Shown piece after piece: positions 21,580 through 30,747 of a stretch of DNA of 64,000 nucleotides. How positions within the stretch are numbered: the first letter of the stretch is position 1; every line of letters begins with the position of its first letter. Below the pieces are notes generated by a model, which saw only the letters and a program-made list of their open reading frames with translations, was not told the DNA's origin and made no database searches. The translations under genes and the position numbers were made by a program. The stretch lies in assembly GCA_963662335.2 (NCBI GenBank), contig CAXXVD010000002.1, positions 288,001-352,000 of the forward strand, read 5' to 3'. This DNA comes from Chloroflexota bacterium (GTDB taxonomy: Bacteria > Chloroflexota > UBA11872 > VXOZ01).

Positions 21580-22815
21580 CTACACCGCCACCCGTTGCAA
21601 CTGCCCCACGTTCCGCCGCACCTTGGCGATGCCCTCCGCGATGTCGTCCATATCGGACTTTTCCGCCAGCAGGGTGGGGTGGCCCATGGCGATACCCTCG
21701 TAGCGGGTCAGTTTCTCCGCTTCCGGGCAGTCCAGCGCGCGGAAGACGCCCGCGCCGCCGGCAATCGCGCCGGTTTCCAGATCCAGCATCGGGTTGTCGT
21801 AGATTGGGCGCGGGTGTCCGCCGGAAACCGGCACGCCCTCCGCGTGCGCCGCGTCCAGGAACGACCGCTTATCCGTGCCGAACTCTTCCGGCAAGATGCG
21901 GAACGTATAGATGTGCATCCCGTGTTGGGTCACGTCCGGCGGGATTGGCGGCGGCGCGATGCCGTCGATTTGCGCCAGCAGGCCGGAGAGGTACTTGGCG
22001 TTGCGGTTGCGCAGTTTCGTCTGTTCGTCGAACCGTTCCAGTTGTCCCAGCAGGATTGCCGCCTGGAACTCGTTCATCGGGTAGTGGCCGCCCAGTTCGT
22101 AGTGCACGTAGCCCGGCTCATCTTTGGCGCGGCCGAAGCTGGAGAGCGTATAGAGCCAGCGTTCGGCCAGTTCCGCGTTATCGGTCGTTAACATGCCGCC
22201 CTCGCCGGTGCTCATGTTCTTGCCGCCGCCCAGGCTGAACGAACTGCCGTCGCCCATCCCGCCCAGTTTGCGGCCTTTCCATTCCGCGCCGTGGGCGTGG
22301 GCCGCGTCCGTGATCAGCGCCAGGCCGTGTTTGCGCGCGATTTCCTCGAAGCGTTCCATATCCGCCGGATAGCCGCCGTAGTGCACCGGGCTGATCGCGC
22401 GGGTGCGGGGCGTAATCGCCTCTTCCGTGCGGTCGGGATCCAGGCAGAGCGACGCCGGGTCGATGTCCGCCATCACCGGCGTCGCGCCCAGGTACATGGG
22501 CGCGAAGGCCGTGGCGATGAACGTAAACGCCGGCACGATCACCTCGTCGCCCGCGCCCACGCCAAACGCCTTCAACCCGATCTCCAGGCCCGCGGTGCAA
22601 CTGGTCAGGCCGATGCCAAAGCGGGCGTCGTGATAGGCCGCGAACCGCTCCTGCGCCGCCGTCTTCATCGGCCCGTGCGCCGTGCCGCCCCATACGCGGC
22701 TCTCGAACACCGCGCGCACGTTGTCCAGTTCGGTCTCGCCGTACTGCGGCCACTTGGGCCAGGATTTCGTCCCGTCCCGCACCGGCGTGCCGCCCAGCAG
22801 GGCCAGTCGTTCCAT
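21580..22815 (-). CDS. DegT/DnrJ/EryC1/StrS PLP-dependent aminotransferase
   Basis: GDEVIVPAFTFIAT, DAAHAHGA, FSLGGGKNMSTGEGG. Confidence 0.92.
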   Translation of the reverse strand: MERLALLGGTPVRDGTKSWPKWPQYGETELDNVRAVFESRVWGGTAHGPMKTAAQERFAAYHDARFGIGLTSCTAGLEIGLKAFGVGAGDEVIVPAFTFIATAFAPMYLGATPVMADIDPASLCLDPDRTEEAITPRTRAISPVHYGGYPADMERFEEIARKHGLALITDAAHAHGAEWKGRKLGGMGDGSSFSLGGGKNMSTGEGGMLTTDNAELAERWLYTLSSFGRAKDEPGYVHYELGGHYPMNEFQAAILLGQLERFDEQTKLRNRNAKYLSGLLAQIDGIAPPPIPPDVTQHGMHIYTFRILPEEFGTDKRSFLDAAHAEGVPVSGGHPRPIYDNPMLDLETGAIAGGAGVFRALDCPEAEKLTRYEGIAMGHPTLLAEKSDMDDIAEGIAKVRRNVGQLQRVAV

Positions 22816-23013
22816 GGTGTCCGTTTCCCTTCCTTTTAATGGGGCTTCGTCCCAGTGACCGCCGTTCCGCTGCCGCTACGCCCCGATTGTATCACCATCC
22901 ACACGCGCCTAGGGTAATCGTATGCTTATGCCGCATTTGCGGTATACTGTATGGCGAATGCGAATTAGGGAATACCGCAGTCCCGCCGCAAACCGGAGCA
23001 GGAGCCGTCCGGC

Positions 23014-23256
23014 ATGATTTCAAATGAAGAGCGCCTCGCGCGCATAGAAGGCGGATACGAACACCTGGCCACCAAGGCCGACATCGGCGACGTTAAGGCC
23101 GACATCGCCGCGCTCAACGGCAGGATAGACGCCCTCGAGGCCCGCATAGACGCCGTGGTCGCCGAGTTGCGCATCCACCGCTGGGCGTTGGGCATCTCCA
23201 TTGCCTTGCAGCTTATCATCCTGGCGCGCCTCTTCGAGATCATCCCGCCGGGGTAG
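23014..23256 (+). CDS. Small coiled-coil protein with C-terminal transmembrane helix (DUF1640-like)
   Basis: HLATKADI, heptad repeats, hydrophobic C-terminus; ggag RBS. Confidence 0.65.
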   Translation: MISNEERLARIEGGYEHLATKADIGDVKADIAALNGRIDALEARIDAVVAELRIHRWALGISIALQLIILARLFEIIPPG

Positions 23257-23342
23257 CGCGCGTACCCGCACGCGCGCTACCCCGGCGCCGTTGCCGGTCA
23301 GCCTCCGCGCGATTTTTCCCGTTTTGTTTGGACAAACCCCCC

Positions 23343-23371
23343 TTGCAACCGCTTTTGCCCTTTGCTACACT
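23343..23371 (+). promoter_or_regulatory. Upstream promoter of surface-protein unit 1
   Basis: TTGCAA-17-TACACT with TG extended -10. Confidence 0.6.
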
Positions 23372-23409
23372 AATGTCCGGACTGACAAGCGCGCAGCCGC
23401 GCCTGCCCC

Positions 23410-23438
23410 TTGCGCAGCTTGGAGCAGTCTGCTACACT
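23410..23438 (+). promoter_or_regulatory. Promoter of surface-protein unit 1
   Basis: TTGCGC-17-TACACT with TG extended -10; conserved in units 2 and 3. Confidence 0.7.
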
Positions 23439-23444
23439 ACTAAG

Positions 23445-23750
23445 CAGGCTGGCGCAGCGTGCCCACTAGCGGGGACACCCTGGGCACAGCGCAAGTCAGT
23501 CAGGCTCATCTCGTATCAACATACCGTGCTATTGGCGTCAACGGTCGGATCAGCCAATTGATCGCCCTGGTCTGCCACCTGGGGAGTGTGACGTACACCC
23601 ACGATTCCCCCTCAGCGCGGGACAGTCATCTAGAAGAAGGGAGTGTATAGCTACACGCGCCGGAATAGCCCGGTATTTTGGGTGTCTCTTTCGAATGGAT
23701 CCGAACGCCCGCTAACGGTTGAACGGGCGTACAAGTGAAAGGAAAGGACT
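23445..23750 (+). promoter_or_regulatory. ~305-nt structured 5' leader, unit 1
   Basis: Highly similar to 25530-25836 with compensatory changes; contains hairpins and an internal agaagggag. Confidence 0.6.
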
Positions 23751-25301
23751 GTGAGACAATTGTCTCGTTTGGTGAGCGTGTTCCTCGCGCTCATTTTGAT
23801 GGGCGCCTCGCTGATGGTCGTGGCCGCGGATGATAAAGTTACTACGGGCGCGAATGCTGAAACTCAGGGCTTGGATCATGGCGCCAAGGTCGTCATCTCC
23901 CGCGTTGACACCACGAGCCCCGTGTATCCCGACACTAAGCTGAAGTTCCGGGTACTCATCGTGCGCAGCGGTCATGATATCCCGGGTGTGGCTGCAACGA
24001 CCCTGAAGCGCACTGGCTTGACTGGCGGCGAAGACAAGTCATATCTCATCGGCACGGATTTCTCCGAGGTCGATGATACCCGCACGACGGATAACACCGC
24101 GGACAAGACGAAAGACCTCTTTTCGGCGCGGCCGACGTTCTCCAAGGAGATCGAGTACGTGGTGCTTGGTACCGACTTGGGCGACAACGCAGCCAGCCGC
24201 ACGGTGAACATCCAGTTCACCCTCGCGTTTACCGTGGGTAGTGATGTGCACGTGGTCGAGAGCAATACGGTGCCGGTGCTGGTAGTGAAGAAGCCTAGCG
24301 AGGGCGATGGGTCGTCCGGCGTGACGATGACGTTTGCCGGCGCCGATCCTGAGGAGCGTGTCGCGGGCAAGAAGATCAAGTTCACGTTGACGGCGAGGAC
24401 CGGCAAGTACGGTCTGGGTGCTACCCAGTTGGTGGAGATCATGCGGCAGCGCTACAGCGATGCCGACACGAAGGACGGCGACCCGGTAATCGTCGACTTC
24501 CTCACCATTCCGACGCTGGGAACCAAGGCGGAAAGCGATGAGCAGTCGGTCGAGTACGTCTTGCGGCAAGAGGACATCGACGCGCACAAGGTCGAGTTCT
24601 CGGTCAAGGTCGAGATTGAGCTCGACGACATCCGCAAAGCTGACGGCACTGCCGTTCTTAAGACTGACATTCATGGGTGGACGAAAGACACGCTGGAGGG
24701 CAGTCACGTCTTCATGAGCATGCCTCCGGTGGCGGCGACGCCGAACCCGTATATCTACGAGAATGCCGCGGCGACGGTGACGGAGCTGGCGGGCGGCACG
24801 GCCGTGGAGATTATGCGGAAGGACACAGGGGCGACGATCACGTTGACGGTAGGCACGCTGAGCAGCGCTGGCGCGCTGTTGCCGCGGGACAGCGGGTACA
24901 TTCGCGACGAGAGTCGCGGGCAGACCTACGCGGTGGTGCGGCGGGCGTCGGACAACACGGTCCGGCGTGTGTGGATATCCTCGAACAGCGAGTGGGTGCC
25001 GCACGTGCCGTGGGATAACGTGATAGCGTTCTACAACGTGCCGGCGTCAGTCTTGAACGCGATACCGTTGGACGACACGATGCCTGAAGTCGACCAACTG
25101 GTAGACGCGGCAGGCACGTGGTACGTGTACCGTGATAGAGCGTGGCGGCATATACCCAATCTGTCCACGTTCCGGGCGGAAGGGTTCTACTGGTGCGACT
25201 TGACGACGGCGGACGCCAACCACGCGGCCGCATCGTCGACCGCGACGCCGCTGCCGTCCAAGGTCGGGCCTCCGGCTGCGGGCTACCCGGCGTGCAGGTA
25301 G
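23751..25301 (+). CDS. Secreted/surface protein, paralog 1 (Ig-like domains plus conserved Cys-containing C-terminal domain)
   Basis: Sec signal peptide, aaggaaagga RBS, YVLRQEDIDA motif, C-terminal GYIRDE..QTYAVVR..EGFYWCD..YPAC. Confidence 0.85.
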   Translation: MRQLSRLVSVFLALILMGASLMVVAADDKVTTGANAETQGLDHGAKVVISRVDTTSPVYPDTKLKFRVLIVRSGHDIPGVAATTLKRTGLTGGEDKSYLIGTDFSEVDDTRTTDNTADKTKDLFSARPTFSKEIEYVVLGTDLGDNAASRTVNIQFTLAFTVGSDVHVVESNTVPVLVVKKPSEGDGSSGVTMTFAGADPEERVAGKKIKFTLTARTGKYGLGATQLVEIMRQRYSDADTKDGDPVIVDFLTIPTLGTKAESDEQSVEYVLRQEDIDAHKVEFSVKVEIELDDIRKADGTAVLKTDIHGWTKDTLEGSHVFMSMPPVAATPNPYIYENAAATVTELAGGTAVEIMRKDTGATITLTVGTLSSAGALLPRDSGYIRDESRGQTYAVVRRASDNTVRRVWISSNSEWVPHVPWDNVIAFYNVPASVLNAIPLDDTMPEVDQLVDAAGTWYVYRDRAWRHIPNLSTFRAEGFYWCDLTTADANHAAASSTATPLPSKVGPPAAGYPACR

Positions 25302-25429
25302 GCAGGACGCATTGAAGCTGTATGGGCACAACACAAACCCTAGAGGTATCAGTGACCGGGAGAGCGAGAGCGTGATGACCGCACGCTAGCGTGCCCGGGG
25401 GGTCTGTACAGTCTCCTTATGCTACGGCG

Positions 25430-25470
25430 AGAGCCGGTGTCTGTGGCAGGACACCGGCTCTTGTTATTGT
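25430..25470 (+). terminator. Intrinsic terminator, unit 1
   Basis: agagccggtgtc / gacaccggctct stem followed by tgttattgt. Confidence 0.7.
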
Positions 25471-25494
25471 CTGTAGAACGGAGCGGCGCGCCCC

Positions 25495-25523
25495 TTGCAT
25501 AGCTTGGGGCAGTCTGCTACACT
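25495..25523 (+). promoter_or_regulatory. Promoter of unit 2
   Basis: TTGCAT-17-TACACT with TG extended -10. Confidence 0.7.
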
Positions 25524-25529
25524 ACTAAG

Positions 25530-25836
25530 CAGGCTGGCGCGGCGCGCGCCCACTAGCTGGGACACCATGGGCGCGGCGGCAGCCGGTCGAGTTCAATTCG
25601 TATCCACATACCGTGCTATTGGCGTCAACGGTCGGATCAGCCAATTGATCGCCCTGGTCTGCCACCTGGGGAGTGTGACGTACACCCACGATTCCCCCAC
25701 AGCGCGGGACAGTCATCTGAAGAAGGGAGTGTATAGCTACACGCGCCGGAATAGCCCGGTATTTTGGGTGTCTCTTTCGAGTGTTTGCGAACGCCCGCTA
25801 ACGGTTGAACGGGCGTACAAGTGAAAGGAAAGGACT
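25530..25836 (+). promoter_or_regulatory. Structured 5' leader, unit 2
   Basis: Paralog of 23445-23750. Confidence 0.6.
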
Positions 25837-27408
25837 GTGAGACAATTGTCTCGTTTGGTGAGCGTCTTCCTGGCGCTCATTTTGATGGGTGCCTCGCTGA
25901 TGGTCGTGGCCGCGGATGATAAAGTTACTACGGGCGCGAATGCTGAAACTCAGGGCTTGGATCATGGCGCCAAGGTTGTCATCTCTCGCGTTGACACCGA
26001 AAGCCCCGTGTATCCCGGTACTGAACTGAAGTTCCGGGTACTCATTGTGAGAAGCGGCCACGATGTTAGGGGTACCGCCGCTGCTACCTACTTGGAGCGC
26101 ACTGGTGTAACTGCCGGCACTAAGTATATCGATGGCGACGATTTCACCGAGCACAACGATGGCCGCACGACCGCTGAGGCAGATAAGACGAAAGACCTCA
26201 CCGAAAAGGCGCCGACGTTCTCCACGGAGTTCAAGTACAAGGTGAGCGACGGCGACTTGGGCGATAACGCGGCCAACCGTACGGTGGACATCCAGTTTAC
26301 TCTCACGTTTCTCGCAACCGCGATGGATGCAGATGGAAATAGAACTAACGCGGAAACGCATGCGGTCACGAGCAATACGGTGCCGGTGCTGGTAGAGAAG
26401 AAGCCTAACGAGGGCGCGGGGTCGTCCGGTGTGACGATGACGTTTGCCGGCGCCGATCCTGACGAGCTTGCCGCGGGCAAGAAGATCAAGTTCACGTTGA
26501 CGGCGAGGACCGGCAAGTACGGTCTGGGTGCTACGAAGTTGGTGGAGATCATGCGGCAGCGCTACAGCGATGCCGACACGAAGGACGGCGACCCGGTTAC
26601 CGTCAACTTCCTCACCATTCCGACGCTGGAAACCGATTCGGTAAGCAATGAGGAGTCGGTCGAGTACGTCTTGCGGCAGGAGGACATCGACGCGCACAAG
26701 GTCGAGTTCTCGGTCAAGGTCGAGATTGAGCTCGACGACATCCGCAAAGCTGACGGCACTGCCGTTCTTAAGACTGACATTCATGGGTGGACGAAAGACA
26801 CGCTGGAGGGCAGTCACGTCTTCATGAGCATGCCTCCGGTGGCGGCGACGCCGAGCCCGTATCTCTACGAGACTGACGCGGCGACGGTGATGGAGCTGGC
26901 GGGCGGCGGGGCCATCGAGCTTACCCGGAAGGACACCGGGTCGACGATTACCCTGACGCTGGGCACGCTGAGCAGCGCCGGCGCGTTGTTGCCGCGGGAC
27001 AGCGGCTACATTCGCGACGAGAGCCGCGGGCAGACCTACGCGGTGGTGCGGACGTCGGACAACACGGTACGGCGTGTGTGGATTTCCTCGAGCAGCGAGT
27101 GGGTGCCGCACGTGCCGTGGGCGAACGTGATTGCGTTCTACAACGTGCCGGCAGCGGTCTTGAACGCGATACCGTTGGACGACACGATGCCTGAAGTCGA
27201 CCAACTGGTTGCGGTGGACGGCGTGTGGTACGTGTACCGTGATCGAGCGTGGCGGCACATACCGAACCTGTCCACGTTCCGTGCGGAAGGGTTCTACTGG
27301 TGCGACTTGACGACTGCGGACAGCAGCCACGCAGCGGCATCGTCGACCGCGACGCCGCTTCCGTCCAGGGTAGGGCCTCCGGCTGAGGGCTACCCGGCGT
27401 GCAGGTAG
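25837..27408 (+). CDS. Secreted/surface protein, paralog 2
   Basis: Long blocks identical to paralog 1; first domain divergent. Confidence 0.85.
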   Translation: MRQLSRLVSVFLALILMGASLMVVAADDKVTTGANAETQGLDHGAKVVISRVDTESPVYPGTELKFRVLIVRSGHDVRGTAAATYLERTGVTAGTKYIDGDDFTEHNDGRTTAEADKTKDLTEKAPTFSTEFKYKVSDGDLGDNAANRTVDIQFTLTFLATAMDADGNRTNAETHAVTSNTVPVLVEKKPNEGAGSSGVTMTFAGADPDELAAGKKIKFTLTARTGKYGLGATKLVEIMRQRYSDADTKDGDPVTVNFLTIPTLETDSVSNEESVEYVLRQEDIDAHKVEFSVKVEIELDDIRKADGTAVLKTDIHGWTKDTLEGSHVFMSMPPVAATPSPYLYETDAATVMELAGGGAIELTRKDTGSTITLTLGTLSSAGALLPRDSGYIRDESRGQTYAVVRTSDNTVRRVWISSSSEWVPHVPWANVIAFYNVPAAVLNAIPLDDTMPEVDQLVAVDGVWYVYRDRAWRHIPNLSTFRAEGFYWCDLTTADSSHAAASSTATPLPSRVGPPAEGYPACR

Positions 27409-27537
27409 GGAAGGACGCATTGAAGCTGTATGGGCGCATCACAGACCATAGAGGTATCAGTGACCGGGAGAGCGAGAGCGTGATGACCGCACGCTAGCGT
27501 GCCCGGGGGGTCTGTACAGTCTCCTTATGCTACGGCG

Positions 27538-27578
27538 AGAGCCGGTGTCTGTGGCAGGACACCGGCTCTTGTTATTGT
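27538..27578 (+). terminator. Intrinsic terminator, unit 2
   Basis: Identical to the unit 1 terminator. Confidence 0.7.
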
Positions 27579-27602
27579 CTTTGGAACGGCGGGGCGCGCC
27601 CC

Positions 27603-27631
27603 TTGCAGCGCGGGTAGCGCTCTGCTACACT
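27603..27631 (+). promoter_or_regulatory. Promoter of unit 3
   Basis: TTGCAG-17-TACACT with TG extended -10. Confidence 0.65.
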
Positions 27632-27939
27632 TTTAACGAAGACCGACCAGCGTACACCCCACTGCTGAGCGGCGCGGATAGCGCGGGGGCGCCATGAAGG
27701 CCAACGAGACGTGTTCTGCATTGGCGTGCCGCGCTCCTGGCGCCACCGGCCAGGTCGGTAGCGATTTCCCCTAAGCCGCCCGAGACTGCGACGCATACTG
27801 ATGATTCCGCCTCAGCGCGGGATAGCCTCCAAGAAGGGAGCGCGTCTGCCCACCGAAACCGCCCGGAATTGTGTCTCTCTTTCCAGCTTTTGCCAGCCGC
27901 TTCACGGAAGCGGACGGTCTAGTGAAAGGATAAGGAACT

Positions 27940-29511
27940 GTGGCCCCCCTGTCTCGTTTGTTGAGCGTCTTCCTGGCGCTTATTTTGATGGGTCTATCAC
28001 TGGCGACCGCGTCGGCAGGGGATAATCACCCCGCGAAGAGCACGTACGGCGCTACGGTATCGCTTTCCCGTATCGACTCCACAGCCGCGGACAAGATACA
28101 CGTGGGGACGGCATTGCAGTTCCGCGTCTTCGTCAGACGGGGCGACCATGATATTCGTGCCGGTACCACGGTGTTCGGCGTGACGCGCGGCAGCTCTCTC
28201 ACCGCGGTCATCCCTGGTGACCCTAATGACCCTAATGACGGTGTGACGGCGAGCAATAGCCTCGTCTCCATGACGATCGACTACGTCGTTGCGGAAGGTG
28301 ATCTGGGCAATGCGGCGCGGCGCCTCGTTCCCTTCCAGGTACAGATGAGCTTTACGCCTGATCCTAGTAAATATACCGGGACTCATCCTGAAGCCACGGT
28401 CATGAGCAACATAATTGGCGTTTTCGTAACGAAGAGACCGGGCTCGGGCGATACCTCTTCGGGCGTAACCTTGGCGTTTGGTATCACTGAGCCGGATACG
28501 ATTGCCGTGGGGAAACAGGTCGGGTTCAGGCTGCGGGTGTCCACAAGCAAGTACGGGCTGCTTGGGAACAGTTTGATAATCCAGAAGCAGCTCTATGACG
28601 CTAACGGCGCCAAGAAGGGCGCGGCGAAGACCGTCACGCTGTTCGGCATTCCGCATCTTCTGAAAGGGGCAGTGAGCGAGGAGCAATCGCAGTCCTACAC
28701 GCTGCAAAAGGAAGACGTGGATGCCGGCGCCGGCCGGGTCGAGTTCTTCTATAGGTGGGTAGTCGAAGATTCGCACCTGCTGGACGCCAATGGGTCGCCT
28801 ACGGATGATCTCCGTGACGACTTCAGCCAGGTCTTCACGCGCAGTCATTTTCTGGGCGGAGCGCCGCCAACGCCGACACCGACACCTGCGGCCAGGGCTA
28901 CGGCGACACCGACGCCTGTGACGACAGTAGTCGGGAGGACGAGCGCGGCGACGGTTACGATTCGAGGGGCTCACCACGTCCACGTGGACCGGCGTGACGG
29001 GGGTCGGGACTTCGTCCTGGCGCTCGGTTATCTTGCGCCCAACGGCGCTCGCGGCTTCAATCCGCGCGGCTACATCCGCGACGGTGAGTCCCAGGGCCGA
29101 GGCGGCCAGACCTACGCCGTGGTGCGGCGCGAGGCGGACCAAGAGATCGTGCGCATCTGGATATCCCCCGAAAGCCCCGAGCGGGGCGAGGTGCCGTGGG
29201 ATACCGTGAAACTGCCGCCCTACACGGTGCCGGTGGGCGTCTTGAGCGCCATCAAGCTGGATGAGACGCGTCCGGTGGAGAACCAATTGGCGCGCCGCTT
29301 CGACGAGCGCAGCGATGGACGCATCTTCGTGTTCCGGAACAACGCCTGGCATTGGATCCCCGATATTCCCACGTTCGAGGCAGAGGGCTTCTATTGGTGC
29401 GACGTGACCGCGGCGGACGTCGACTTCTTCAGCCGCGCCAATATCGGAACTCCTTTGCCAAGCAGCGGCACCGCGAAAGACCCGAACTATCCGAATTGCC
29501 ACTCCAAGTAA
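27940..29511 (+). CDS. Secreted/surface protein, paralog 3 (divergent; Pro/Thr linker)
   Basis: LSRLLSVFLALILMG signal peptide, YTLQKEDVDAG, PTPTPTP linker, GYIRD..QTYAVVRR..EGFYWCD..YPNC. Confidence 0.85.
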   Translation: MAPLSRLLSVFLALILMGLSLATASAGDNHPAKSTYGATVSLSRIDSTAADKIHVGTALQFRVFVRRGDHDIRAGTTVFGVTRGSSLTAVIPGDPNDPNDGVTASNSLVSMTIDYVVAEGDLGNAARRLVPFQVQMSFTPDPSKYTGTHPEATVMSNIIGVFVTKRPGSGDTSSGVTLAFGITEPDTIAVGKQVGFRLRVSTSKYGLLGNSLIIQKQLYDANGAKKGAAKTVTLFGIPHLLKGAVSEEQSQSYTLQKEDVDAGAGRVEFFYRWVVEDSHLLDANGSPTDDLRDDFSQVFTRSHFLGGAPPTPTPTPAARATATPTPVTTVVGRTSAATVTIRGAHHVHVDRRDGGRDFVLALGYLAPNGARGFNPRGYIRDGESQGRGGQTYAVVRREADQEIVRIWISPESPERGEVPWDTVKLPPYTVPVGVLSAIKLDETRPVENQLARRFDERSDGRIFVFRNNAWHWIPDIPTFEAEGFYWCDVTAADVDFFSRANIGTPLPSSGTAKDPNYPNCHSK

Positions 29512-29580
29512 ACGGGGCGTTCGGGCTCGTGCTGGTGCGACGGCGCACACGGCGCCGCTAGTCCGGTAAGATGCTGAACG

Positions 29581-29616
29581 CAGAGCCGGTGTCCGCGCGC
29601 GAGGACACCGGCTCTG
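29581..29616 (+). terminator. Terminator-like hairpin, unit 3
   Basis: cagagccggtgtcc / ggacaccggctctg, same stem as units 1 and 2. Confidence 0.6.
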
Positions 29617-29739
29617 GCATTGTCCCCCCTCACCCCGGCCCGCTCCCTGGGAGAGGGGGCAAGAAGAGCTGATTGGCTCCGGTTCCCTCTCCCGGCGGGA
29701 AGGTTAGGGAAAGGGGGCGGAATGCGATAGGGAGGCGCA

Positions 29740-30747
29740 GTGACACCACGCTTCTATGACGTAGCCCGCCTGCGGGCGTGGCGCGCGCGCATTGCCGCGC
29801 TGGACGCGGCCGCGGCGCCGGCGGCGGACGTGATTGCGCCGCCGGGCGCGGCTGCGGCCGGGGCCGCGGCGGTGGTGGCCGGGTCGTTCAATCCGCCGAC
29901 CGCCGCGCACCTGAGCCTCTGCGACGGCGCGCTGCGCCAGCCGGGGATCGAGACGGTGTGGCTGGTGCTGGCGGTGCGCACCGTTGATAAGGAAGCGGTG
30001 ACCGGCGCCTGCCTGGAAGACCGCCTGCTGCTGCTATCGATGCTGGCGGCGGCGCGGCCCAACGTGGGCGTGGCCCTCTGCAACCGGGGCCTCTACGTGG
30101 AACAGGCCGCGGCGCTGCGCGTGCAGATCGTGCCGCCGGCACGGGAACTGGTGTTCGTGGTGGGCTACGATAAGATCGAACAGATCTTCGACGGGCGCTA
30201 CTATACGGCGCGGGAGGCTAGCCTGGCACGGCTCTTTGGGCTGGCGCGGTTTCTGGTGGCCGCGCGCGATGGGCACGGCCGCCACGCCCTGGCCGCCCTG
30301 CTGGCTCAAAGCGAGAATCGGCTCTATCAACACCGCGTGGCCGCGCTGACGACCCTGCCCGCAGATCACGACCCAACCCTCTCCTCAACCCAGGTGCGCG
30401 CGGCCTACGCCCAGGACGCGGCGCGGGAAACAACGGACGGGCAGGGCGCGACTGCGGCGGCCGCGAGTTGGGGCGCGCCGGATGTGGTGTGGGCGTTTGC
30501 GCGGGAGACCGGGGTCTACGCGCCGCCGCTGGCGCTGCCCGGCGGCGAGACGGTGGACCGCTACGGAATGCGGCTGCGGCTGCTGGAGGCGCTGGCGGCG
30601 GAACCGGCAAGCGACTTTGCGGCGGCTGAATTCGCGGCGGCGGTGCGGCTGGCAACGGCGGACTCAGCGGCCGGCCGCGCGCTGCGCCGCCTGCTGGCGG
30701 GGAATGCGGTAACGCTAGCGGCGATTCGCGCGCGGGTGCAGGCGTGA
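29740..30747 (+). CDS. Nucleotidylyltransferase (NMN/NaMN adenylyltransferase-like)
   Basis: GSFNPPTAAH, VGYDK..IFD.RYY, LSSTQVR. Confidence 0.75.
   Translation: MTPRFYDVARLRAWRARIAALDAAAAPAADVIAPPGAAAAGAAAVVAGSFNPPTAAHLSLCDGALRQPGIETVWLVLAVRTVDKEAVTGACLEDRLLLLSMLAAARPNVGVALCNRGLYVEQAAALRVQIVPPARELVFVVGYDKIEQIFDGRYYTAREASLARLFGLARFLVAARDGHGRHALAALLAQSENRLYQHRVAALTTLPADHDPTLSSTQVRAAYAQDAARETTDGQGATAAAASWGAPDVVWAFARETGVYAPPLALPGGETVDRYGMRLRLLEALAAEPASDFAAAEFAAAVRLATADSAAGRALRRLLAGNAVTLAAIRARVQA

Follow-up and report, generated by a model that had tools for sequence, protein, structure and literature searches.

Three tandem genes for secreted proteins with a shared C-terminal module and a strongly conserved leader: candidate wall-anchored surface proteins of a Chloroflexota lineage

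What do three similar genes, standing in tandem and each equipped with its own long leader, contribute to a Chloroflexota cell? This question is raised by a window of 64,000 nucleotides (nt) from a Chloroflexota bacterium (contig CAXXVD010000002.1, positions 288,001 to 352,000). Three open reading frames (ORFs) on the + strand fill positions 23343-29616 of the window and encode proteins of 516, 523 and 523 amino acids (aa), with a period of ~2.1 kb. Protein 1 is 84% identical to protein 2 and 42% identical to protein 3, and we refer to the genes as A1, A2 and B. On balance, we lean towards the reading that they encode wall-anchored major surface proteins under post-transcriptional control. Two features carry this reading: a C-terminal module that recurs on other proteins of the lineage, and a leader that is more conserved than the genes that follow it.

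The direct-repeat families across the array have a period of 2085-2113 nt. Among the repeats we found a four-copy box, CCCCTTGC-N17-TGCTACACT, at 23339-71, 23406-38, 25491-523 and 27599-631, so that unit 1 has two promoter-like boxes, 67 nt apart. The distance from the -10-like box to the GTG start is 308-313 nt in all three units. The pattern TTGC-N18-22-TACA[AC]T was matched in 17 of the 22 upstream regions from the window and its relatives, and the box, the spacing, the leader and the GTG start were all seen again in relatives. A first-pass annotation of this DNA had described three ~2.1-kb units, each consisting of a promoter, a ~300-nt leader, a signal-peptide protein and the same terminator stem. 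The repeats, the scans and the relatives confirm this layout, with promoter-like boxes and leaders of ~310 nt; promoters, long leaders and terminators recur in relatives and are real, conserved parts of the array.

The N-termini of all three proteins read as Sec-type signal peptides, with a basic n-region, a hydrophobic core and an A-x-A-like site, and the signal-peptide helix spans residues 3-21 in the AlphaFold model. The model of protein 3, made from a 43-sequence alignment, reached a predicted local distance difference test (pLDDT) score of 82.2 and predicts two beta-sandwiches, a disordered linker and the C-terminal module (Table 1). The motif Y-x-(V/L)-x3-D is nearly invariant in both sandwiches (Y115/D121/L122 and Y253/L255/D259). 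For the sandwich pair (residues 36-306), the top whole-chain match was RbmA, a Vibrio cholerae biofilm scaffold with two fibronectin type III (FnIII) domains (Z 8.9, root-mean-square deviation (rmsd) ~11.7 A). Both have two tandem beta-sandwiches, but RbmA has no sequence similarity to the proteins described here and no comparable C-terminal module, and because of the high rmsd the resemblance is generic. The sandwiches also matched complement MG domains (Z 8.3, rmsd 3.0 over 109 residues).

Sequence searches found no named family. Pfam and NCBIfam gave no match above cut-off on the three proteins (Pfam none at E<=1), and the best sub-threshold family was CusF_Ec, with 16.2 bits against a cut-off of 27. 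PDB-sequence profile searches with the proteins and the module returned no match at E<=1, and no fn3 or immunoglobulin (Ig)-like family scored above cut-off in the N-terminal 310 residues. The resemblance to FnIII and Ig domains lies at the fold level only. Pfam found no CWB2 (PF04122) in the three proteins or in the module taken by itself, and no SLH (PF00395) in the three proteins. A sortase-type signal was not seen either: the proteins end in Y-P-x-C plus 1-3 residues, with no hydrophobic tail. In a word-indexed search, 58 relatives reached E<=1e-3; the few that carry a source label are Chloroflexota/Chloroflexi, and all contigs of relatives examined come from Chloroflexota/Chloroflexi metagenome-assembled genomes. 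These results agree with the first-pass annotation, which had proposed a lineage-specific family without a name. Its secreted protein with two Ig-like beta-sandwiches, Y.(V/L)...D motifs and a common C-terminal domain is likewise borne out by the AlphaFold model, and the Pfam scan and structure comparison that it had suggested gave no family match and a generic FnIII/Ig tandem fold. A search of full-text literature found no paper on the family, the module or the leader; the supplementary tables of an S-layer survey preprint, which may hold Chloroflexota candidates, lay outside this search.

The ~190-aa module is present in exactly six copies in the source genome. Three are in the array genes, and three are at the C-termini of giant proteins of 2660-2954 aa, encoded by tandem genes on a different contig. 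A profile built from the six copies was run against 1.84 billion representative proteins. It matched 314 cluster representatives at E<=1e-3, 186 at E<=1e-10 and 128 at E<=1e-30, and in most of the 150 matches listed the module stops at the protein's C-terminus or a few residues short of it. At least a few proteins (P0059, P0027, P0060, P0061) carry 2-4 tandem copies. In a Pfam scan of 33 module proteins we found N-terminal LRR, cadherin, FN3, Calx-beta, S8 subtilase and Glug domains, and no model covered the module itself. Among 401 genomes sampled evenly across the phylum, 27 contained the module, all of them from two families of one class (11/11 genomes of family f1 and 15/25 of family f3; 4 of 217 genera). 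Up to seven candidates were scored per genome in this sample, and the module copy numbers are therefore lower bounds. In the ESM Atlas, the best feature score for the module was 0.89, against clusters without names, which provided no usable lead. Two cysteines are invariant in the C-terminal module copies and both are missing in the internal copies of P0059, a pattern that would fit a disulfide pair. Judged by these sequence matches, the module appears to be a common C-terminal tag of the extracellular proteins of the lineage.

Two observations on the carriers may be added. The giant genes (2660, 2954 and 2924 codons; C3:277709-306026, L004-L006) encode a signal peptide, long Pro/Thr-rich linkers and many FN3-/cadherin-like repeats, and the first two giant proteins have nearly identical N- and C-termini. 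At L028:7845-8510 (222 aa) and L030:7860-8510 (217 aa), the protein consists of a signal peptide and the module only, and the gene lies away from the A/B array.

The second feature is the leader. Between the promoter box and the start codon, the upstream regions of different species and of both gene types can be aligned, with several invariant or nearly invariant blocks. Among orthologues the leader is 74-90% identical, compared with 54-69% for the coding DNA and 44-62% for third codon positions. In the source genome, a sequence profile and a covariance model found the leader only before the three array genes. By these models, 10 of the 17 genomes of the genus contained it, with one to five strong copies each, and BLAST found it in none of the 81 other genomes of the class that were searched. 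The same leader precedes the signal-peptide-plus-module proteins (217-222 aa) in L028 and L030. Rfam 15 gave no match at gathering scores in the whole window, and none at E<=1 in 23300-29700.

A seven-helix consensus fold pairs in 93.5% of cells, versus 31-50% when the partners are slid. One invariant block, AAGAAGGGAG, is purine-rich and Shine-Dalgarno-like and lies ~100-130 nt upstream of the start codon, with no conserved start codon after it. In the consensus fold it is partly paired with an invariant CCCT, and therefore it may be sequestered rather than bound by the ribosome. An upstream mini-ORF (ATG-CAC-GCG-CCG-GAA-TAG) that follows AAGAAGGGAG in several A-type leaders was rejected as a candidate, being absent in W1, W2, L011b and all B-type leaders. 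No ORF is conserved in the leader, because one- and two-base insertions and deletions between orthologues break the frame. A GAGAC-N4-GTCTC hairpin overlaps the GTG start; gene 3 of the window has lost it. Taken together, these alignments indicate that the leader is most likely a functional RNA element, recognised largely by its sequence.

Two further observations concern the ends of the leader. Across species there is hardly any variation in the first ~30 coding bases, even at synonymous sites (23751-23780, 25837-25866 and the homologous starts in L007-L054). The signal peptide is also the most conserved part of the protein (mean identity 76-78% among orthologues, 71-78% for the whole family), and a reason may be that the RNA element reaches into the coding region. 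Within the A-type leaders there is a terminator-like hairpin (GCCGGAATAGCCCGGT then ATTTTGGG; 23659-23683 and 25745-25769), but B-type leaders do not preserve its first pairing. Since some of its bases also belong to an alternative consensus hairpin, an attenuation switch is conceivable.

The history of the array was read from its relatives. The A-type gene lies upstream and the B-type gene downstream in the same order in L007, L009, L010, L011 and L016, and the same DegT gene is upstream of the array in 6 loci. A 21-member maximum-likelihood tree, from a quick search (the careful search was unfinished), resolved an A clade and a B clade, each with a Shimodaira-Hasegawa-like approximate likelihood-ratio test (SH-aLRT) value of 93. 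The A gene was duplicated independently three times, in the window genome, in L010 and in L011, and the duplicates in the two other species are nearly identical (branch lengths 0-0.04). The count of paralogues that the first-pass annotation had proposed gave one or two A genes and one B gene in related species. By tree and gene order, the array is an old A/B paralogue pair at a fixed locus, plus a recent duplication of A.

Rates of change differ strongly along the proteins. The synonymous divergence (dS) between A1 and A2 is 0.4-0.8 at residues 41-160, ~0.04 at 190-350 and 0.14-0.40 in the module, and this mosaic therefore points to gene conversion between the copies. The overall ratio of nonsynonymous to synonymous divergence (dN/dS) between A1 and A2 is 0.46, with no clear signal of positive selection. 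Mean orthologue identity is 0.33-0.42 in domain 1, 0.40-0.48 in domain 2 and 0.58-0.62 in the C-terminal module. The flanking DegT protein is 89-92% identical across species, and the aspartate kinase (AspK) 95%. The family thus evolves much faster than its neighbours (domains 33-48% versus ~90% for DegT), as expected from the earlier description of it as diversifying. Since the neighbours are ~90% identical and the putatively exposed domains 33-48%, the proteins are likely to form an interface with the environment (e.g. with phages, hosts or grazers). A fast outer part joined to a conserved anchoring part is the pattern that would be expected of exposed envelope proteins.

How could the module hold a protein at the cell surface? 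Modelled alone, it reached a pLDDT of 94.4 and a predicted template modelling (pTM) score of 0.89. In an all-against-representatives structural search, its residues 121-181 superposed on the EccB1 repeat (Z 6.2, rmsd 2.2 A, 59 residues). The same residues matched the LysIME-EF1 endolysin (Z 4.4), the Streptococcus mutans C-terminal domain 3l9a (Z 4.1), PlyCB (Z 4.1) and the cell-wall-binding domain of Lys170 (Z 3.3). In the available part of the EccB1 study, the EccB1 repeats are likened to wall-binding PlyCB, and peptidoglycan binding is proposed and called unproven by the authors (PMC4769845). We also found that P0195 (885 aa) carries an M23 peptidase and LGFP repeats, followed by six ~65-residue repeats like the last subdomain of the module, for which Pfam has no model. 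This motif may be an unrecognised wall-binding repeat that is spread wider than the full module. These comparisons are consistent with a module that holds proteins non-covalently on the wall through its last, PlyCB/EccB-repeat-like subdomain, as far as the model can indicate.

The gene content of the source genome (96% complete) gives this a context. We found 4 transpeptidase, 6 Mur-ligase-domain and 2 SEDS matches, and no match to SLH, sortase or Omp85; as a control, the SLH search found SLH in 4 of 14 reference genomes. Because peptidoglycan genes are present and SLH, sortase and Omp85 are unmatched, the cell is predicted to have a single membrane and peptidoglycan, and to be without the usual routes for attaching surface proteins. 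The module would be a good candidate to fill this gap. The accessible parts of the literature on Chloroflexota envelope layers name no anchoring module.

Public sequencing data hold some evidence of expression. Seven public runs contain part of the stretch. Contigs from two small RNA libraries of one study, from a close relative, are 95-98% identical to the window. They cover 23560-23986, including the leader across the start codon (23608-23813), and 26674-27534; in the latter region both stop at the first base of terminator 2. This gives a weak hint that the leader is transcribed with its gene and that the hairpin marks the 3' end. No RNA-library contig (>=88% likeness) was found on 27940-29511, which is no evidence that gene B is silent.

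Based on these results, we propose how the array may work. Three monocistronic genes, two of type A and one of type B, would yield secreted ~50-kDa proteins outside a monoderm Chloroflexota cell. The two fast-evolving Ig/FnIII-like sandwiches would face outward, followed by the Pro/Thr linker and the module at the C-terminus, which would anchor non-covalently to the wall, either to peptidoglycan or to an attached polymer. Among the carriers of the tag, A and B would be the simplest and the most highly expressed. They would be major envelope proteins that form either an S-layer-like coat or a dense layer on the surface. Transcription of each gene would start from its own extended -10 promoter, run through a ~310-nt leader and end at a strong hairpin. 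The leader, apparently under stronger purifying selection than the coding sequence, would most likely act post-transcriptionally, on translation, on the stability of the mRNA or on both. Invariant blocks such as AAGAAGGGAG, rather than bulk secondary structure, would be recognised by a protein or by the ribosome; since the leader is not unusually stable, a sequence-specific partner is likelier than a generic protective hairpin. In this form, the array would be a conserved pair of secreted, wall-anchored, fast-evolving surface proteins, expanded to three genes, with a lineage-specific C-terminal anchor, own promoters and a constrained leader, and we consider this somewhat more probable than its negation.

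Several observations weigh against this reading. Foldseek with the module gave no PDB match at E<=1e-3 (best E 0.048, with EccB proteins in the top rows). The fold match covers ~60 residues with Z <=6.2, under the caution line of ~8 below which common arrangements are possible, and for the module's first ~120 residues no structural match was convincing. A simple sigma-70 consensus scan found no promoter across 22800-30000, because the boxes match just 8 of 12 consensus positions; the case for the putative promoters rests on conservation and not on consensus match. As for the leader, 7 of the 17 genomes of the genus have no detectable leader despite having the module. In the leader consensus, 11 pairs change on both sides versus 3.3 +/- 1.3 in shuffles, but the counting alignment was fitted to the model, and most changes are from wobble to Watson-Crick pairs and separate the two leader types. 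The folding energy of the leader is ordinary against shuffles (z = -0.29 and +0.67), with no sign of an unusually stable fold. Concerning abundance, the codon adaptation of the three genes lies at percentiles 35, 28 and 13 among 2559 probable genes (ribosomal-protein/elongation-factor reference). It was therefore dropped as a sign of high expression, and it is weakly informative, since the index barely discriminates in this genome (reference 0.58-0.78 versus a genome median of 0.66). The RNA evidence consists of assembled contigs of one study, in which DNA carry-over is possible, and provides no expression ranking.

Could the proteins serve adhesion rather than form a coat? As adhesins or RbmA-like matrix scaffolds, their sandwiches would bind a host or matrix ligand, and the proteins would be neither a structural coat nor especially abundant. 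RbmA as the best whole-model match fits this, as do the fast evolution of the exposed domains and a codon usage unlike that of highly expressed genes. The module also occurs on proteins with cadherin, LRR and FN3 domains, all of them typical of adhesion. However, the RbmA match supports a generic tandem beta-sandwich and nothing more specific, and a dedicated promoter, a conserved leader and a strong terminator on each copy fit the dosage of a bulk component better, as do the repeated A duplications and the signal-peptide-plus-module forms behind the same leader. We regard adhesins as a possible but distinctly less probable explanation. The role of the module itself may also be different, namely that of a self-assembly or lattice domain, or of a tag for sorting or processing. 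The tandem copies in P0059, P0027, P0060 and P0061 and the near module-only proteins behind the same leader could be explained in this way, and the cysteines that are invariant in C-terminal copies and absent in the internal copies of P0059 suggest that the terminal copy may be special. PlyCB, according to the part of the EccB1 study mentioned above, forms an eight-subunit ring (PMC4769845). But wall-binding modules, too, typically occur in tandem, and a protein of the peptidoglycan-hydrolase type (M23 and LGFP) has repeats of the related ~65-aa motif. The module also lacks the C-terminal transmembrane helix or basic tail of sortase/exosortase-type signals, and no processing enzyme is encoded beside the array. 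We consider an assembly domain or tag unlikely.

The first-pass annotation had suggested that the paralogues serve surface variation. In its strict form, this means phase or antigenic variation, with one copy expressed at a time through recombination or promoter switching. Tandem paralogues are what such a system would need, A1 and A2 differ mainly in domain 1 with the signature of gene conversion described above, and the accessible text of a review of Lactobacillus S-layers describes silent and alternately expressed S-layer genes (PMC3666127). Against this, every copy has a promoter-like box, a leader and a terminator. The inverted repeats in 23000-30000 are just 20-29 nt long with 72-85% complementarity, and none flanks a promoter; we found no recombinase family among the 17 neighbouring ORFs scanned and no silent cassette. 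A and B are ancient orthologous groups in a fixed order, and the nearly identical A duplicates of two other species fit dosage better than variety. The suggestion was therefore not upheld, and we think phase variation very improbable. A bolder version of the wall-anchor reading is doubtful in our judgement, though less so than an assembly tag or phase variation. It holds that the module is an undescribed wall anchor that defines the displayed surface proteome of the lineage, that A and B are S-layer subunits, and that the leader is a new structured regulatory RNA that senses or adjusts envelope output, for example through a protein that binds its own mRNA or through a signal of the envelope state. 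As to a direct interaction of the two types, mature A1 (27-516) co-folded with mature B (27-523), with alignments for both, gave a score of 0.00 against a mark of 0.32, which speaks neither for nor against A-B binding.

The array can be compared with known systems. In Clostridioides difficile CWB2 proteins and Bacillus anthracis SLH proteins (with adjacent sap and eag), one anchor module is common to wall proteins and the S-layer protein. The likeness is that one putative wall-directed module is found on simple surface-layer proteins as well as on adhesins and proteases; paralogues lie side by side with own promoters, and a conserved anchoring part is combined with a variable exposed one. Unlike these, the module described here is unrelated in sequence, C-terminal and limited to two Chloroflexota families. 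EccB1, PlyCB and the enterococcal endolysin binding domain superpose on its last ~60 residues with modest Z, but share no detectable sequence similarity with it, and here the fold is fused to a ~120-residue beta domain and has a conserved cysteine pair. For the leader, STAB-SD, a Shine-Dalgarno-like stabiliser inside a 5' untranslated region (UTR), was reportedly described by Agaisse and Lereclus in 1996. The invariant purine-rich AAGAAGGGAG is a candidate for such an element, with the difference that it is partly paired with CCCT. In the accessible text of the Lactobacillus review, S-layer genes have long stabilising 5' UTRs and double promoters, and sequential and alternative expression of S-layer genes is reported (PMC3666127). 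The array resembles them in its monocistronic genes, in more than one promoter-like box on the first gene and in a long leader before a secreted surface protein; it differs in that the ~310-nt leader is conserved above the coding region and is not unusually stably folded.

By these comparisons, the family would belong with shared-anchor wall proteins that include S-layer-like members and carry a long leader, and its domain and RNA element are new to Pfam, PDB sequences and Rfam. How Chloroflexota build their atypical single-membrane envelope and attach proteins to it is poorly known, and the conserved module and leader suggest that this lineage has its own means of constructing its cell surface and of regulating it. 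Should the module prove to be a wall anchor, it would provide a sequence handle for the surface proteome, including giant cadherin/FN3 adhesins, LRR proteins and secreted proteases, and might be used as a display tag. Untranslated regions that are clearly better conserved than the gene behind them are rare, and the leader is one of these; it is also a candidate for a new post-transcriptional control element of envelope protein synthesis. The features of the array are collected in Table 1.

Table 1. Features of the array, parts of protein B and degenerate upstream copies in relatives (positions refer to the window unless a locus or residues are named).
Feature	Position	Strand	Basis
Distal promoter-like box, unit 1 (TTGCAA-N17-TGCTACACT)	23343..23371	+	direct-repeat family and relatives
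Proximal promoter-like box, unit 1 (extended -10 TGCTACACT)	23410..23438	+	box and spacing kept in relatives
Leader 1, 312 nt, A-type; core 23497-23690	23439..23750	+	alignment, profile
Gene A1, 516 aa: signal peptide, two beta-sandwiches, linker, C-terminal module ~24765-25298	23751..25301	+	
Terminator hairpin 1, 17 bp, G+C-rich, T-rich tail	25426..25465	+	terminator scan
Promoter-like box, unit 2	25495..25523	+	repeat family and relatives
Leader 2, 313 nt, A-type; core 25584-25776	25524..25836	+	alignment, profile
Gene A2, 523 aa, recent A1 duplicate with mosaic divergence; C-terminal module ~26869-27405	25837..27408	+	
Terminator hairpin 2, 17 bp, T-rich tail, stem identical to hairpin 1	27534..27573	+	terminator scan
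Promoter-like box, unit 3	27603..27631	+	repeat family and relatives
Leader 3, 308 nt, B-type; core 27702-27881	27632..27939	+	alignment, profile (131 bits)
Gene B, 523 aa; C-terminal module 28918-29508	27940..29511	+	ORF, AlphaFold model
Gene B, signal peptide	residues 1-26		
Gene B, beta-sandwich 1	residues ~33-168		
Gene B, beta-sandwich 2	residues ~172-306		
Gene B, disordered Pro/Thr linker	residues 307-328		
Gene B, C-terminal module	residues 329-520		
Terminator-like hairpin 3, stem as in hairpins 1 and 2, weak T-run	29581..29616	+	read from sequence; missed by terminator scan
Degenerate promoter/leader copy	L009:4316-4499		
Degenerate promoter/leader copy	L010:3104-3240		
Degenerate promoter/leader copy	L011:2758-2909		
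Degenerate promoter/leader copy	L054:6340-6490		
Degenerate promoter/leader copy	L015:7498-7628		

The degenerate copies in Table 1 are second copies that comprise the promoter and the leader's first ~150 nt, located directly upstream of the array's first gene in several species. We also considered the promoter box as the mark of a regulon. TTGC-N18-20-TACACT occurs 19 times in the genome, where base composition predicts ~6.5, and the array accounts for 4 of these sites; they are too few for a regulon, and this idea was dropped.

DNA contigs from runs X1 and X5 that lie over 24165-27417 show in-register joins of unit 1 to unit 2 or of unit 2 to unit 3, in which ~2.1-2.2 kb are skipped (for example 25214 to 27417 in X1), with joint sides of 22-32 letters. 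These joints may reflect copy-number variation in the population or assembly collapse over the repeat, and we did not use them as evidence.

The genes that flank the array encode a DegT aminotransferase, a ceramidase-like protein, a DUF2961 protein, a cytidylyltransferase-like protein, a BFN nuclease and the aspartate kinase. A functional linkage with these neighbours was rejected, as they suggest no envelope operon, though the DegT gene is kept beside the array. Upstream of the array, an 80-codon ORF (23014-23256, + strand) encodes a coiled-coil segment followed by a hydrophobic helix, with no Pfam match. L054 has kept it at this position with 87% identity, and L008 less well; a G+C-rich palindrome comes after it at 23251-23290.

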